DNA of 4,692 bases from a virus (taxonomy: Duplodnaviria; Heunggongvirae; Uroviricota; Caudoviricetes). The translations under genes were made by a program, and so were the position numbers. The notes beneath the pieces are model-generated. The model was given only the letters and a program-made list of their open reading frames with translations. It did not search any database and was not told where the DNA came from. Where the stretch lies: positions 1 to 4,692 of the IMG/VR virus record IMGVR_UViG_2778261344_000007; one strand, given 5' to 3'. This document shows, piece by piece, positions 1 to 4,692 of the stretch (the stretch's first letter is position 1; every line of letters begins with the position of its first letter).

Positions 1-53
1 CTTGCCCACTCGTTATATTTTTCCGCATTAATGGCTTTCTGTGTATTTAACAT
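1..53 (-). CDS. hypothetical protein, 5' end only (17 codons; gene runs off the window start)
   Basis: Minus-strand ATG at 51-53 preceded by GGAGG (plus 61-65, read as CCTCC) with a 7-nt spacer. Frame stays open to position 1 (MLNTQKAINAEKYNEWA...). Too short to name. Confidence 0.4.
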   Translation of the reverse strand, partial: MLNTQKAINAEKYNEWA

Positions 54-158
54 AAATATACCTCCAGTTAAGGATTAAATTTTATTTACAGTGCTGAACT
101 TAATTATTCAGATTTGGATTATGCTTTCTCTTCACGAAGTTCCGATTGTTAATTTGGC

Positions 159-581
159 TCACAACAGCACCTTCTGAAAATTACCCTGATAGAAAGCCAG
201 TACACGCTGCATAGCTTCGCTCTTCCGGCACTCGCTACAGATTATGTTCAGACGCCTGTCGTAGCGGCGTATTTCTCCGTCTGGTAATGACCAGATAAGA
301 TCCGGATCAACCACAACCGGTTTCTTCACCTTTGCCCTTGATAGTTTTTTGCGGGCGTTTTGCCAGTCTTTACGCGCCTGCTCAGACGGGAATAATCCGT
401 AGCCTGAATTGTAAACATCACCACTGGCGACCAGTTCTCTGGCGAGAGTGCTTATGTAATACCTTGATGCACCGGTTTTAGCCTCCAGAGCCCGTAACGT
501 CTCGCGACCGCTCAGACGTACAAGTTCAACAACCTGCCCTTTAATTTTTTCCCGCTCTTCTGGTGTAAATACTTTTGCCAT
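159..581 (-). CDS. Ren-like protein, 140 aa (N-terminal winged-helix-like region, C-terminal ECRKSEAMQRVLAFY motif)
   Basis: ORF-track frame 159..596; start placed at ATG 579-581 because GGAGG lies 5 nt upstream (plus 587-591). The C-terminus ...CSECRKSEAMQRVLAFYQG resembles my recollection of the phage lambda Ren C-terminus (...KECRQSAAMKRVLAVYG). Position distal to the replication genes matches lambda ren. Recollection not verified by search. Confidence 0.7.
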   Translation of the reverse strand: MAKVFTPEEREKIKGQVVELVRLSGRETLRALEAKTGASRYYISTLARELVASGDVYNSGYGLFPSEQARKDWQNARKKLSRAKVKKPVVVDPDLIWSLPDGEIRRYDRRLNIICSECRKSEAMQRVLAFYQGNFQKVLL

Positions 582-596
582 AGGTGCCTCCGGCAA

Positions 597-1358
597 TCAC
601 TTTTCCGACACAATACGACTGGAGGAATCGAAAATCTGTCGAACAATATCCCGGTGCTTGTTCAGCTCCCGCAGCGCGGCGCAGACTCGCTCCCACTTCT
701 GGACATGATTTTTCGCCCGACGCAGTTCGCGGTTTGCCATATGCAGCGATGGTAAAACCAGGTCATCCGCTCGCGTTTCAGTAAACGATGGCAGCGACTG
801 CACAATGTCCGCCACCGTTTCTGTTTTAATATCTTCCTGTGTTGCAGCCTCCTGTACTGGTAACGCAACACCTGTGGGCTGAGGAAAGGCCTTACCATCA
901 GTTTCCGCTACCGATGCTGCTTTCGGCTCTGCTGGTAAATTATCGCCCGGTATGCAGTAACGAAATTTACCGTTCTGGTTTACGCGAATCAGGCGTCCTT
1001 TGCTGATAGCCATTGCCAGCGTTGAAGCTACTTTGCGTGATGTGGTACCGAACAATGTAGCCAACTCATCCGCCGTTTGTGGGCCACGTTGTTCAATCGT
1101 CGCGGTTAAATCGCACTCTGAGATTTTCGCTACTGTTGCCATGGTGGTTTCTTCCGGCAGCTCTGCCGGCGCTGGCTGTTCCTGCTGAACGTTGTTATCA
1201 GCCACGCGCCAGGTGTATACGCTTTTATCAACGAAGCCAGCCTTTTTCAGTTCCCACAGCTCGTTCAGCACTTCTTCTCGACTGATATCAAGTCGCGTAG
1301 CCAGTTCTACCGACGTGGCTTTTCCCATCGCTTTCAGTGCGTCAAAAACGGTCTCCAT
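597..1358 (-). CDS. prophage protein with two winged-helix-like domains, an acidic/Pro-rich linker and a basic helical C-terminus (DUF1627-like), 253 aa
   Basis: ORF-track frame 597..1409; start placed at ATG 1356-1358 (METVFDALK...) because GGGAGG lies 8 nt upstream (plus 1367-1372), whereas the longer start at 1409 has no RBS and would overlap ydaV by 29 nt. Two HTH-like segments are readable ([30 protein letters not shown] and [32 protein letters not shown]). Family assignment is from memory. Confidence 0.75.
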
Positions 1359-1380
1359 TAAAATTTCCTCCCGGTAAAAA

Positions 1381-2127
1381 TTACTTCTCAATACCTGGCT
1401 GACCAACATTCGGGCGCCAGCTCTCCCAGTTAAAATTCACCCAGCGCCCGCCGTTCATGGTCATGCGATCCATAATCCGCTCGCCGAGCAATGTTTTCAT
1501 GGCCTCATAGTTCAGGTTTGTCAGCATCCCCACGCTGCGCATTGACGCTGTCCGGCGATCAACAATCTGGTGCAGTACCACCTGCTCGTTTTTCGTCTCG
1601 CGCTGAATACCAATTTCATCAAGAACCAGCAGATCAACTTCGCACAGTTCCCGCAAAAATTTTTCGCCTGACTGCCCGTCGTCATAGCTGGCGTGCAGGG
1701 CGCTCATAACATCAGCCACGGTAACCACAATCACTGTCTGGCCATCTTTCAGCAGGCGATTCCCGATAGCCGCCGCCAGATGGTTTTTTCCGGTACCAGG
1801 TTTTCCGCTGAACGCGAAATTTGTGCATCCGGTAACCAGTTCGTCAGCGATAGATTTCGCCTGACTCAACGCGTATCGCTGGCCGTCGTTCTGCACCTGG
1901 TAATTCGCAAACGAGCATTTGCGGTGCAACGGCTGTATGCCGGAGCGATTCAGGATTTTTTCCACCCGCAACTGACGATTCTGACGGTTGATCTCCTCAC
2001 AACGTTTCTGGCCTTCTGCAAGTTGCCACTCGCGCCACTCCGCCACCGTCCTGAATGGCGCGGTTACATGTGGCGGGGCCAGTCTGCGGATACGTTCCAG
2101 AACGCCGCCTGTCGCAATATTTTTCAT
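1381..2127 (-). CDS. ydaV: DnaC/IstB-like AAA+ ATPase, putative replicative helicase loader (lambda P analogue by position)
   Basis: 248-aa ORF with Walker [12 protein letters not shown] and Walker [10 protein letters not shown] readable in translation. ATG 2125-2127 with AGGGGG upstream; starts 6 nt after the ydaU stop. Length and context match Rac prophage YdaV as I recall it. Confidence 0.88.
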
Positions 2128-2133
2128 GGTCTG

Positions 2134-2922
2134 TTACCCCCTGAAGCCTGGCGGGATCGCACTGTCCGGAAACGAGACGGTGTTAATCTGTCGGAGCAAC
2201 GTCTCTGGCCGAACACCTTTCGGCGCGAACAAGCCCTGGTATTCATTGGCGATGCTGTGTCGAATCACCTGCTCAGGTGAAAAACCCTGCTGGCGGAATT
2301 TTTCCAGCTCCCGTATCGCCCCGTTAGCGCCCTGCTCCGTTCGAATCGGTTTTCGCAATGCCTGCCTGAACTGAACCCACTCATGCCAGAGTGTTTCCGG
2401 CAACCAGTCAGGCAGCTCGATAGCCTCCGGTTCGAATTTTTTAGACGCTCGTTTTTGGCGAGGGGGATTTAGGGGGAGATAAGTATTTATATCTTCCTCT
2501 TTCTCTTCCTCTGGTAACGCTTTTTGATCCGTTTTTGTAACGCTGGCAGCGTTACCTTTTCGTTTCAGTTCTCGTATTTTTGTTACTCTCTCGTTTGTAA
2601 CCGCCCGTTTTTTAGAGCTTTTCCCGTTATGGCGCTCAAAGTTAGGAAGCGACAACACACCATTAGTTTCGACCAGCCATCCAACCTGAATTAACGCATC
2701 AGCAAAACCAGCCATAAAAGTGATGCGATCTATTGCACTTTTTGTAACGCCGCGAGCGTTACACTCTGCGTTACCGTCTATCATTTGTTGATCCGCCCAT
2801 GCCCAGAAGCGAATGACTTTCCCTAATGCGGCATCTGGATCAATATTCAGAATCTCAGCAAGCCTGAATATTTCCGGCTTATCCGGCGTAATAACTTCGA
2901 GCTTTATCCAGTTTGAAGCCAT
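2134..2922 (-). CDS. ydaU: putative replication initiation protein, YdaU family (lambda O analogue by position)
   Basis: 262-aa ORF, ATG 2920-2922 with AGGTGA about 7 nt upstream. Two-domain layout with a charged low-complexity linker (KSSKKRAVTNERVTKIRELKRKG...EEEKEED) whose coding DNA carries the palindrome/T-tract cluster. Lies directly upstream of the DnaC-like gene. Symbol assigned by synteny and length class, not by search. Confidence 0.8.
   Translation of the reverse strand: MASNWIKLEVITPDKPEIFRLAEILNIDPDAALGKVIRFWAWADQQMIDGNAECNARGVTKSAIDRITFMAGFADALIQVGWLVETNGVLSLPNFERHNGKSSKKRAVTNERVTKIRELKRKGNAASVTKTDQKALPEEEKEEDINTYLPLNPPRQKRASKKFEPEAIELPDWLPETLWHEWVQFRQALRKPIRTEQGANGAIRELEKFRQQGFSPEQVIRHSIANEYQGLFAPKGVRPETLLRQINTVSFPDSAIPPGFRG
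2514..2622. other. candidate replication origin: cluster of GTAAC/GTTAC half-sites with T-tracts inside the ydaU linker-coding DNA
   Basis: GTAAC at 2514, 2537 and 2597, GTTAC at 2551 and 2582; T4-T6 runs at 2521, 2532, 2557, 2577, 2608 and 2619. Just upstream lie GGGGGATTTAGGGGGAG (2462-2478) and an AT-rich/polypyrimidine stretch (2479-2510). Confidence 0.35.
2536..2556. repeat. palindrome copy 1: TGTAACGC-TGGCA-GCGTTAC (inside ydaU, codons 123-130 GNAASVTK)
   Basis: Arms of 8 bp read directly; the reverse complement matches. Confidence 0.85.
2743..2763. repeat. palindrome copy 2: TGTAACGC-CGCGA-GCGTTACA (inside ydaU, codons 54-61 CNARGVTK)
   Basis: Perfect 8-bp arms, 5-bp centre, read directly. 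Confidence 0.85.
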
Positions 2923-2934
2923 TTGTTTTCACCT

Positions 2935-2955
2935 TGTAACGCTCGCAGCGTTACA
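2935..2955. repeat. palindrome copy 3: TGTAACGC-TCGCA-GCGTTACA (non-coding, ends 2 nt before the ydaU Shine-Dalgarno)
   Basis: Perfect 8-bp arms read directly; located in the 77-bp ydaT-ydaU spacer. Confidence 0.85.
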
Positions 2956-2964
2956 TTTAACTGA

Positions 2965-2986
2965 TACCGAACAAAACAGTTCGGTA
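2965..2986 (-). other. hairpin TACCGAAC-AAAACA-GTTCGGTA in the ydaT-ydaU spacer (8-bp stem, 6-nt loop, no U-tract)
   Basis: Perfect 8-bp inverted repeat read directly; lies between the ydaT stop (3000) and palindrome copy 3. Confidence 0.4.
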
Positions 2987-2999
2987 CGATTAATTTCAA

Positions 3000-3422
3000 T
3001 CAATGCACTACGACAGAATCGCTAGGAGAACCGCCGCCGCTGAAATGTGCTTTACGGTAAACGGCCTGGACTGCATCATCATGCGCATCAATTGCCGTAC
3101 TCAGTGCATCCTGTGCCGCCAGTAATGCACGGCGTTCCAGGGTATCGAAGATGCAGAGTCGGTGACGCAGCTCGCGAGGAAGAATTGCCAGAACCGCAGG
3201 GATCAGTTTCTGAATTTTTTCCCTTTGCGCATTCGTTTCACCTTTCAACCAACGATGATAGATATTCTGCTGATTGTTCCAGTCCTTGCCTGGTACCAGG
3301 GGCAATTCGCCGCCCCCCTGGCGCAGATATTCTTCAGTAATTGCGTTAGCGACCCACGCCTGCCCTTTTTCGGCTGCCAGGGCTAACAACACTGATTCGA
3401 TGTGCTCATGCTTGATTTTCAT
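3000..3422 (-). CDS. ydaT: YdaT-family protein (CII-like regulator of Rac-type prophages; historically annotated as a toxin)
   Basis: 140-aa ORF beginning MKIKHEHIESV..., which I recognise from memory as YdaT of the E. coli Rac prophage (unverified). ATG 3420-3422 overlaps the ydaS TGA 3419-3421 (ATGA coupling); GGGAG lies 7-8 nt upstream. Confidence 0.88.
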   Translation of the reverse strand: MKIKHEHIESVLLALAAEKGQAWVANAITEEYLRQGGGELPLVPGKDWNNQQNIYHRWLKGETNAQREKIQKLIPAVLAILPRELRHRLCIFDTLERRALLAAQDALSTAIDAHDDAVQAVYRKAHFSGGGSPSDSVVVH

Positions 3423-3429
3423 GAATCAA
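3412..3429. promoter_or_regulatory. perfect inverted repeat TTGATT-N6-AATCAA centred on the ydaS stop / ydaT start overlap
   Basis: TTGATT 3412-3417, ttcatg 3418-3423, AATCAA 3424-3429, read directly. A weaker relative (ACGATT-N6-AATCAA, 2986-3003) overlaps the ydaT stop. Confidence 0.4.
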
Positions 3430-3673
3430 CTCCCATCAGCTTTTTCGTAGTAGTTTTATTTCTGCCAATAGTTAAAATTGCATCGGCAGAAAATAATCCG
3501 TTTGATGCATGAGCGATTTTTTCAGCGTAATTTGTTTCGCCGGTATATTCTGTGCGAGGCAATTTACCGTTATCCATCCATTTGTAGATTGCTCTTTGGC
3601 TGACACCACAAACGTCGGCCACAACAGAAACGCGAACAGTTTTGATTACATCTTCAAGTGTTTTCTGGTTCAT
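3419..3673 (-). CDS. ydaS: Cro-like small HTH regulator (YdaS-like), 84 aa
   Basis: ORF-track frame 3419..3745; start placed at ATG 3671-3673 (MNQKTLEDV...) because GAGGGTGA lies 5 nt upstream, whereas the ATG at 3745 has no RBS and sits inside the repressor promoter. HTH-like segment VADVCGVSQRAIYKWMDNGKLP. First gene of the operon, divergent from the repressor. Symbol by synteny. Confidence 0.75.
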   Translation of the reverse strand: MNQKTLEDVIKTVRVSVVADVCGVSQRAIYKWMDNGKLPRTEYTGETNYAEKIAHASNGLFSADAILTIGRNKTTTKKLMGVDS

Positions 3674-3697
3674 ATCACCCTCACAATGTGAACTTTG

Positions 3698-3732
3698 AGT
3701 ACATGCTATAACAGAACTGACAGTACATTCAA
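3698..3732 (-). promoter_or_regulatory. candidate early-right promoter (PR-like) for the ydaS operon: -35 TTGAAT (plus 3727-3732), 16-bp spacer, extended -10 TGtTATAGC (plus 3705-3713)
   Basis: Read on the minus strand; would give a leader of about 25 nt containing the ydaS RBS. The -10 is imperfect (ends in C). Confidence 0.4.
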
Positions 3733-3753
3733 GAGCGAATATCATTGAACTTA
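3717..3753 (+). promoter_or_regulatory. candidate repressor-maintenance promoter (PRM-like): -35 CTGACA 3717-3722, 17-bp spacer, -10 TATCAT 3740-3745; predicted start at or beside the racR ATG (leaderless mRNA)
   Basis: Hexamers and spacing read directly; the -10 ends 7 nt before the ATG at 3753 and no RBS is present. Lambda cI mRNA from PRM is leaderless (established), which gives a precedent. Confidence 0.45.
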
Positions 3754-4172
3754 TGGTTCATGAAGATAAAGCGCGTAAAGAGTTCGCCAGTAGGCTTGCG
3801 CTAGCCTGTGAAAACGCTGGTTATGAACAACATGGAAGGCAGGCAGAAATTGCCCGTCGAATGAAATTAACACCAAAAGCGGTTAGCAAATGGTTTAATG
3901 GTGAAACAATTCCTCGCCGAGAGAAATTAAGGGAATTAGCAACACTCATTGGAACAACACCAACCTATCTTTTGGGAGAGGATACAGAAGAAAGTGGACA
4001 GATACGTTTCTATCAGGAGTTAAATCCAAGACAAAAAATCATCATTGACCTTCTGGACGAGCTCCCTGACAGTGAGACAGATGAACTTTTAAAAACTCTT
4101 GAGGAGAAAAAACAGAAGTACAATGCAATTTACGAAGAGTTAGCACGAAAGAAAAAACAAAAAGCCTCTTAA
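3753..4172 (+). CDS. racR: CI-like prophage repressor, XRE-family HTH with a charged helical C-terminus (RacR-like), 139 aa
   Basis: ORF with HTH segment QAEIARRMKLTPKAVSKWFNGETIPRREKLRELATLIG, divergent from the cro-like gene. No Shine-Dalgarno precedes the ATG at 3753, but a good -10 ends 7 nt upstream. Symbol is positional (racR-ydaS-ydaT-ydaU-ydaV order). My memory of K-12 RacR length differs, so this may be a variant repressor. Confidence 0.8.
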   Translation: MVHEDKARKEFASRLALACENAGYEQHGRQAEIARRMKLTPKAVSKWFNGETIPRREKLRELATLIGTTPTYLLGEDTEESGQIRFYQELNPRQKIIIDLLDELPDSETDELLKTLEEKKQKYNAIYEELARKKKQKAS

Positions 4173-4182
4173 ACCAGCATAA

Positions 4183-4220
4183 ATCCGGTAGCGTCCCCCT
4201 CCGGGTTTGTGCTTCACTTT
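4183..4220 (+). terminator. weak candidate terminator after racR: stem ATCCGG / CCGGGT (4183-4188 and 4201-4206, one G-U pair), 12-nt loop, then T-rich TTGTGCTTCACTTT
   Basis: Hairpin begins 11 nt after the racR stop. The stem is short, the loop long and the T-run interrupted, so this is weak. Confidence 0.25.
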
Positions 4221-4247
4221 ATCCCGTCTCATTTTTTTATACATAAA

Positions 4248-4291
4248 ATGTACTTAAAGTACTTTACAATGATGAACACAAAGTACATTAT
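4248..4291 (+). promoter_or_regulatory. operator/promoter cluster downstream of the repressor (OL/PL-like): inverted site 4248-4262 containing palindrome GTACTTAAAGTAC, direct site GAACACAAAGTACAT 4274-4288, candidate -35 TTTACA 4263-4268 and -10 CATTAT 4286-4291
   Basis: Motif copies read directly. Hexamers are moderate matches with a 17-bp spacer, oriented toward the small ORFs at 4464 onward. Confidence 0.4.
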
Positions 4292-4463
4292 ATACCTACC
4301 AACCCACCCCGCCCCACAGAACGCCGGGCAATACTTCGAGTTACCAGGCAGTGGTCAGGGGTTAAGTAGCCAGCCCGAGGCGTATGAACATGACGGCGGG
4401 ATTCAAATTTTGCAGTGCAGCAGTTAGTTCCGCCACCCGGCGTTAAGGGGAAATGAGGTCAAC

Positions 4464-4616
4464 ATGGATACTATCGATCTTGGCAACAACGAATCTCTGG
4501 TATGTGGCGTGTTTCCCAATCAGGACGGCACATTCACCGCCATGACGTATACCAAAAGCAAATCGTTTAAAACCGAAGCTGGCGCGCATCGCTGGTTAGC
4601 AAGAAACTCCGACTAA
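4464..4616 (+). CDS. small early-left protein, 50 aa (MDTIDLGNNESLVCGVFPNQDGTFTAMTYTKSKSFKTEAGAHRWLARNSD)
   Basis: ATG 4464-4466 with GAGG (4455-4458) 5 nt upstream; below the ORF-track size cutoff. Position corresponds to the small ydaG/ydaF genes next to racR in Rac, but I cannot say which. Confidence 0.6.
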   Translation: MDTIDLGNNESLVCGVFPNQDGTFTAMTYTKSKSFKTEAGAHRWLARNSD

Positions 4617-4627
4617 TGAGGTTGACG

Positions 4628-4692
4628 ATGGAATTTAAAGATTTACCTCCTTCAATCCAGGAGATTGCAGCACACACACTTCGTCATCGTCT
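4628..4692 (+). CDS. small protein, N-terminal 21 codons (MEFKDLPPSIQEIAAHTLRHR...), continues past the window end
   Basis: ATG 4628-4630 with GAGG (4618-4621) 6 nt upstream, starting 11 nt after the previous stop; frame open to the window end. Confidence 0.5.
   Translation, partial: MEFKDLPPSIQEIAAHTLRHR

Follow-up and report, generated by a model that had tools for sequence, protein, structure and literature searches.

A DUF1391 gene and a modular gene behind it at the head of a putative repressor-controlled early-left operon in a Rac-type prophage

The 4,692-nt stretch analysed here (positions 1 to 4,692 of the IMG/VR virus record IMGVR_UViG_2778261344_000007, referred to as a whole as the window) ends in two genes that lie downstream of a prophage repressor gene: a first open reading frame (ORF1) encoding a 50-residue protein of the DUF1391 family, and a second one (ORF2) that is cut by the window end. 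An account of this DNA made from its letters alone (the preliminary description) had recognized the length of the first gene and the truncation of the second, and had taken the pair for two tightly spaced small genes with good ribosome-binding sites (RBSs). The spacing and the RBSs hold up, as only 11 nt separate the two frames and each is preceded by a GAGG Shine-Dalgarno element, at 4455-4458 (5 nt ahead of the ATG of ORF1) and at 4618-4621 (6 nt before the ATG of ORF2 at 4628), but 'small' does not apply to ORF2: in the parent locus (L001, 100% identical; window coordinate = L001 coordinate - 5301) it spans 9929-10567 and encodes 212 residues. Likewise, both genes do follow the repressor gene in the same orientation, yet they are set off from it by a 291-nt gap (4173-4463) with a control region of its own. 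RefSeq already has annotated entries identical to both (ORF1 is WP_000379546.1), and the window adds no new kind of gene.

ORF1 is a genuine, already-annotated member of a known family. It matched the Pfam profile PF07151 (DUF1391) with 100.9 bits against a gathering cut-off of 27.3 (E=2.9e-29), residues 2-49 aligning with profile positions 1-48 of 48, and it matched phrog_751 of the PHROGs collection (7.5e-36). The protein is 89.8% identical over 49 residues to YdfA of the K-12 prophage Qin and 81.6% identical to YdaF of Rac, and the DUF1391 columns N8, G15, P18, F24, T25, S32, F35, K36, A41, R43 and W44 are invariant in 30 sequences, ORF1 included. Comparison with seven distinct homologous DNA sequences gave ratios of nonsynonymous to synonymous substitution (dN/dS) of 0.06-0.21 at a synonymous divergence of up to 1.26, and the variable sites are distributed as 7/7/24 over codon positions 1/2/3. 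Of 5426 complete E. coli genomes, 2623 contain the DNA of ORF1 at a coverage of at least 80%, the highest copy number being six; all 40 of the 40 hits that were sampled are annotated as intact coding sequences, and intact annotated copies of DUF1391 number in the hundreds. Decayed copies (start lost, frameshift or internal stop) were found in Shigella flexneri and in some E. coli chromosomes (L017, L019, L020 and L021), in genomes that also hold intact copies elsewhere, and a few such copies are to be expected of cryptic prophages. The notion that we are dealing with chance open frames in a non-coding leader could draw on the crowding of the region, where 22 ORFs of at least 20 codons overlap 3600-4692, and on the degraded copies in Shigella and E. 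coli; it is refuted by the Pfam match, by dN/dS values far below 1 with variation concentrated at third positions, and by the hundreds of intact copies, and we give it next to no credence.

Several annotations in and around this family call for comment. Some databases fuse the equivalent of a 20-residue ATG ORF at 4384-4446 to DUF1391, giving proteins of 77-86 residues; such N-terminal extensions are not conserved as coding and are unsupported here, where the stop codon at 4444-4446 and a frame change close the upstream frame. A 72-residue GTG ORF at 4209-4427 lies, like the 20-residue ORF, in the promoter and leader region, and was treated as spurious, as it overlaps both of these and has no family match. 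DUF1391 contigs were also encountered in metagenome bins bearing the names Veillonella parvula, Collinsella, Candidatus Nanosynbacter and Bacillota (L005, L007, L013 and L018); in these contigs, the DUF1391 genes and their surroundings match those of Escherichia prophages and of phage mEp460 completely or almost so, and the contigs are probably mis-binned. Finally, DUF1391 proteins carry the label 'head-DNA stabilization protein D' in ON470580, ON470583, ON470595, ON470614, ON470616 and PV340562. A sequence search of the PDB with ORF1 returned only a 19-residue motif in lambda gpD and phage 21 SHP (E=0.014; chain of ~114 residues), and as homology does not extend over the gpD domain, we rejected a head-decoration protein as the identity of ORF1. 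The label is probably an annotation error that arose because of this motif, the sole basis for it that we found.

With regard to function, scans against Pfam, NCBIfam, PADLOC and PHROGs gave no label for ORF1 beyond DUF1391/phrog_751. Among the defence models of PADLOC-DB v2 the only match was to AbiEi, with E=0.016 over 30 residues, which is not credible, and the literature on DUF1391, ydfA, ydaF and Ybl81 yielded expression data and no function. Here the preliminary description agrees with published accounts, in which ydfA, ydfB and ydfC are 'small proteins of unknown function' (PMC5069750) and the ydaFG genes are 'without determined functions' (PMC11014345). In the AlphaFold model of ORF1, which is of moderate confidence (pLDDT 71), three strands and a short fourth one are accompanied by a helix at the C-terminus. 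We infer that ORF1 is soluble and cytoplasmic, a mini-protein built from one helix and three beta strands, without DNA-binding or catalytic signature.

The start of ORF2 can be placed by comparison. Relatives have ACG or some other codon where the window has an in-frame ATG at 4616 (overlapping the stop codon of ORF1 as TAATG), whereas seven loci all agree in the ATG at 4628 and in the 17 bases after it, so that 4628 is the real start. These first 20 nt (4628-4647, ATGGAATTTAAAGATTTACC) are invariant as DNA in the window and in L004, L008, L023, L026, L027 and L030, and are retained even where the ORF2-type proteins are only ~40% identical, which suggests a constraint beyond coding, for instance on translation initiation or as a recombination joint. 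The copy in a Shiga toxin (Stx) phage is exceptional in differing by one base, in codon 2. We also note that the cistron junctions at 4452-4469 (AATGAGGTCAACATGGA) and 4615-4632 (AATGAGGTTGACGATGGA) are near-repeats of one another, as if gene cassettes had been joined via a common RBS linker.

ORF2 is a real gene, already annotated as hypothetical, with dN/dS values of 0.27-0.32. It corresponds over its full length to phrog_2151 (1.8e-147) and has no Pfam match; four further PHROGs, of differing lengths, are matched by its first 50-75 residues. Its close relatives (n=153; 200-221 residues) come from Escherichia and Salmonella, and none of 50,697 deposited phage genomes contains the gene at full length. 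When ORF2 was used in an exhaustive HMMER search, only 30 representatives were retrieved among 1.84 billion cluster representatives, and one of the 30 (P0253) is a low-complexity repeat artefact. Most of the 30 have only a ~55-residue N-terminal module (MEFKDLP...NVRDAFxGLY) in common and continue into unrelated C-termini, while a few (P0254 and P0263) share only the C-terminal domain, at about residues 98-212. The same modularity is apparent in individual loci: the gene after DUF1391 in mEp460 and in E. albertii joins the N-terminal module to a different C-terminus, and in Stx phages the module is found at other places of the early region. We infer that ORF2 consists of an N-terminal helical-hairpin module joined to a C-terminal alpha/beta domain. 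Its structural model is poor (pLDDT 61) and gave only non-specific fold matches; a sequence search of the PDB returned nothing better than E>0.05, and PADLOC, Pfam, NCBIfam and PHROGs supplied no functional label. The preliminary description had likened both genes to the YdaG/YdaF-type peptides of Rac. For ORF1 this is apt, given its DUF1391 membership and its resemblance to YdaF, but not for ORF2: peptides of the YdaG/YdfB/YdfC kind have 42-72 residues, and searches with ORF2 returned neither YdaG nor YdfB at E<=10, and YdfC only at E=7.6. ORF2 is also without similarity to SieB.

The C-terminal domain of ORF2 has a constant companion. In all four settings in which it was found (Table 1), a convergent gene of 64-69 codons abuts or overlaps the 3' end of the ORF2-type gene, and this constant pairing identifies ORF2 as one half of a mobile two-gene cassette. 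The small convergent proteins are homologous to one another (44-86% identity), with ORF2 relatives down to 27%; the 69-residue protein next to ORF2 evolves with dN/dS of 0.19-0.26, had no hit in PADLOC-DB v2 and received no functional label from the Pfam, NCBIfam and PHROGs scans. These observations bear on whether ORF1 and ORF2 might form an obligate pair, such as a toxin and its antidote or the subunits of a two-subunit complex. Their 11-nt spacing would fit such an arrangement, as would the recurrence of the same junction in E. albertii, E. ruysiae, mEp460 and loci from metagenome-assembled genomes. However, DUF1391 occurs without a MEFKDLP-type gene in K-12 Rac and Qin and in OS31, Bas97, LIET2 and CGphi29, a Salmonella element and Stx phages have ORF2-type genes but no DUF1391, and the partner that ORF2 keeps is the convergent 69-residue gene rather than ORF1; an obligate pair is extremely unlikely.

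Table 1. Positions and make-up of the features discussed, in the window and in the parent locus L001.
Feature	Position	Strand	Description
Operator-like pair, OR-type	3689-3702 and 3713-3726		cro/repressor gap; 24 bp start to start
Prophage repressor gene	3753-4172	+	139 aa; HTH_3 (1.8e-9); DicA-like architecture
Operator-like pair, OL-type	4249-4262 and 4273-4286		gap before ORF1; 24 bp start to start
Sigma-70-type promoter-like site	4263-4291	+	TTTACA-17 nt-CATTAT; consensus match only
Leader	4292-4463	+	~170 nt; ends in the 26-nt box (4426-4451)
ORF1	4464-4616	+	ATG; 50 codons; 50-aa DUF1391 protein (YdfA/YdaF family)
ORF2, first 21 codons (MEFKDLPPSIQEIAAHTLRHR)	4628-4692	+	cut by window end; 212 aa in parent
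Parent, one side of repressor			DUF1627, ydaV, ydaU-like gene, ydaT, cro-like gene
Parent, mid-region			139-aa helix-turn-helix repressor gene
Parent, other side of repressor			'DUF1391 family protein', 212-aa hypothetical, convergent 69-aa gene, dicB fragment
Parent, further along			kil, ydaE, racC-like gene, recE (frameshifted), recT, ralR, xisR, intR (frameshifted)
Cassette setting 1	L001 9929-10777 (small gene 10568-10777)		window's prophage; outside window
Cassette setting 2			Qin-type prophage L030, after ydfA and ydfB
Cassette setting 3			Salmonella integrative element without DUF1391 (L027, L028)
Cassette setting 4			int/repressor/Cox-type (P2/Cox-type) elements, distant relatives (L034-L037)

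Next to the repressor gene the window holds what appears to be a control region. There are four copies of the operator-like motif TGWACW-N3-AGTAC in the window, where 0.11 would be expected, and four of AGTACAT, for which the expectation is 0.30. The sites form two pairs, which amounts to a complete OR/OL-type layout, and the immunity type differs from that of K-12 RacR. Between the repressor gene and ORF1 there are two operator-like sites, the leader and a sole promoter-like site, which starts right after the operator at 4249-4262 and overlaps the operator at 4273-4286 with its -10 element. The repressor is 28% identical to DicA over 112 residues (E=8e-15) and resembles RacR in the helix-turn-helix only. 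Further along the parent locus, outside the window and in the same orientation, lies the small RNA (sRNA) DicF (L001 11116-11167; Rfam RF00039, 75 bits against a cut-off of 48), closed by a terminator-like hairpin at L001 11150-11165; the Rfam scan of the window itself gave no match. In Qin, transcription of a polycistronic mRNA begins upstream of ydfA, at dicBp; DicA represses it via operators in both intergenic regions, and deletion of dicA raises dicBp 22-fold (bioRxiv 10.1101/2023.04.14.536235); in K-12 Rac, ydaF and ydaG are up ~40-fold upon antagonism of RacR (PMC6765115, PMC11014345). In light of the operator pairs, the promoter-like site, the DicA-like repressor, DicF and the behaviour of these homologous K-12 operons, ORF1 and ORF2 would be the first cistrons of a repressor-controlled early-left operon, in which operator binding and promoter activity are predicted from sequence. 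This is in line with the early-left position given in the preliminary description.

The same evidence bears on the role that had been proposed for this slot, namely exclusion or anti-restriction. If expressed in the lysogen, one or both proteins might block incoming phages, like SieB, Rex or DicB: K-12 Rac has sieB in the same neighbourhood, convergent to ydaF, DicB of the homologous Qin operon protects against ManYZ-using phages (PMC6832061), ydfA mRNA was detected in stationary phase (bioRxiv 10.1101/2023.04.14.536235), and the convergent 69-residue gene could be expressed independently of the repressor. We nevertheless regard lysogen-expressed superinfection exclusion or defence as unlikely, because the promoter would be under repressor control: operator-like sites flank and overlap it, and the K-12 homologues rise 22- to 40-fold only on loss of repression (bioRxiv 10.1101/2023.04.14.536235; PMC6765115, PMC11014345). 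Moreover, neither ORF1 and ORF2 nor the 69-residue protein had a credible hit in PADLOC, and DUF1391 is also found in Pantoea LIET2, a 75-kb myophage with no repressor in the stretch examined around the gene. None of our tests linked ORF1 or ORF2 to exclusion, restriction evasion or defence, and this part of the preliminary description finds no footing.

The leader deserves separate consideration. Over 4292-4451 it is near-identical to the racR-ydaG leader of K-12 Rac, beyond which the two diverge, ydaG and ydaF coming next in K-12 and DUF1391 directly in the window. The shared part ends in a 26-nt box (AGTTCCGCCACCCGGCGTTAAGGGGA, 4426-4451) that stands just ahead of the first cistron in leaders of the Rac, Qin and mEp460 types, which are otherwise different. 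Homology to the induced phages vB_EcoS-666R9, 673R7 and 613R10 (97% over 61-4451) stops exactly at the end of the box, which is thus also a mosaic joint. This arrangement raised the possibility of an operon-internal regulator, ORF1 occupying the slot of lambda N and acting in antitermination or processing past the DicF terminator towards kil, recET and int. The conserved position of the box, the terminator-like hairpin at the end of DicF and the fact that no N-like gene is annotated in the parent locus are consistent with this idea. However, we dropped a nut site as the identity of the box for three reasons: (i) the folding of the leader does not stand out from that of shuffled sequence (z -1.24); (ii) the box itself offers only a 4-bp hairpin with weak covariation; (iii) it has no second copy in the 19-kb locus, and hence no nutR counterpart. 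In addition, ydaG intervenes between the box and DUF1391 in K-12 Rac, and ORF1, as read from its sequence, is slightly acidic, has no arginine-rich motif and does not qualify as a member of the lambda N/nut system. Since there is no nut pair and DUF1391 is also found far from immunity regions, an N-like role is disfavoured and appears very unlikely. The box may rather be a translation-initiation element or a recombination 'joint'.

The prophage from which the window derives can be identified, as positions 3700-4692 are 100% identical to many Shiga-toxin-producing E. coli chromosomes, for example NZ_CP027331.1, where the region is a Rac-type prophage adjoining ttcA. The preliminary description had already placed the DNA in a Rac-type element, and the ttcA site together with kil, ydaE, recE/recT, ralR, xisR and intR downstream bears this out. 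The gene order at the repressor is Qin/mEp460-like (repressor, then DUF1391), as opposed to racR, ydaG, ydaF in K-12 Rac. After DicF, a sub-threshold STnc100-like match (38 bits against 47) covers the dicB remnant and the start of kil, the region as a whole spanning L001 11116-11354; the annotation of K-12 Rac has an sRNA, KilS, upstream of kilR.

DUF1391 genes keep varied company. In mEp460 and Serratia phage OS31, the first gene to follow the repressor is DUF1391. In Bas97, Pantoea LIET2 and Salicola CGphi29 (53-69% identity), DUF1391 has no repressor nearby and lies in a group of small early genes. The genes downstream of it vary between loci. The strong conservation of ORF1, its reshuffled neighbours, its stand-alone occurrence as an early gene in unrelated phages and the lack of a DNA-binding or enzymatic signature all point to a protein that binds a conserved host component, for takeover or counter-defence; taken by itself, this mechanism is put forward tentatively and falls short of an even chance.

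Taken together, our results are best accounted for, with a probability somewhat above even, by a combined reading in which DUF1391 and ORF2 head a repressor-controlled dicBF-type operon, ORF1 being an early host-factor binder and ORF2 one half of a cassette. In the prophage state, both genes behind the promoter-like site at 4263-4291 would be silent; once the repressor is lost, ORF1 and ORF2 would be transcribed at once, and transcription would run on, outside the window, into DicF, the dicB remnant, kil, recET, ralR, xis and int. ORF1 would then bind a conserved host protein early in lytic development, in host takeover or counter-defence, and ORF2 with the convergent 64-69-residue gene would be a separate two-gene cassette inserted behind it. 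A bolder version, which we consider doubtful, sees in DUF1391 a very widespread phage 'mini-binder' directed against a conserved host factor or a defence right at the onset of lytic development, and in ORF2 with its 64-69-residue partner an undescribed conflict cassette (defence, toxin-antidote or counter-defence), its effector mounted on a swappable adaptor; the N-terminal module could then be such an adaptor common to many different early-left proteins of lambdoid, Stx and P2/Cox-type elements.

DUF1391 is carried by roughly every second complete E. coli genome, often more than once per genome, and heads operons that make the cell-division regulators DicF, DicB and Kil; assigning it a function would fill one of the gaps that remain in the E. 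coli 'y-ome'. The value of the window lies in its clean regulatory picture (operators, promoter and leader) and in the pointer it gives to the conserved cassette of ORF2 and the 69-residue gene.

Among known systems, one close likeness is to Qin YdfA (b1571), which belongs to the same Pfam family and is the first cistron after a DicA-type repressor, with a repressor-controlled promoter and DicF downstream. Unlike in Qin, where ydfB (42 residues) and ydfC (72 residues) follow ydfA, a 212-residue gene follows here; the repressor has diverged from DicA to the extent given above, the operators differ, and a dicB remnant, Rac-type kil, recET and ralR lie beyond. Of the hallmarks of a dicBF-type operon, a DicA-like repressor with two pairs of putative operators and DicF are present, whereas dicB is not intact, being reduced to a partial pseudogene at L001 11237-11320, outside the window, with the Rac-type kil next to it. 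To YdaF of K-12 Rac (b4527) the locus is akin in the identity of the protein, the type of prophage, the ttcA site and the near-identical leader; in K-12, however, ydaG precedes ydaF and sieB converges on it, whereas here ydaG is absent, the repressor is not RacR, and ORF2 with its 69-residue partner sits in the position of sieB. ORF2 itself is akin to the PHROG 2151 or 'Ybl81' hypothetical proteins, which it matches over its full length. More broadly, ORF1 and ORF2 recall the lambdoid PL genes (lambda N, Ral, SieB, CIII and Kil), which are small and stand first in a leftward, repressor-controlled operon whose last genes serve recombination, excision and integration; this likeness is one of position, as neither a sequence or fold similarity nor a nut-like pair was found.
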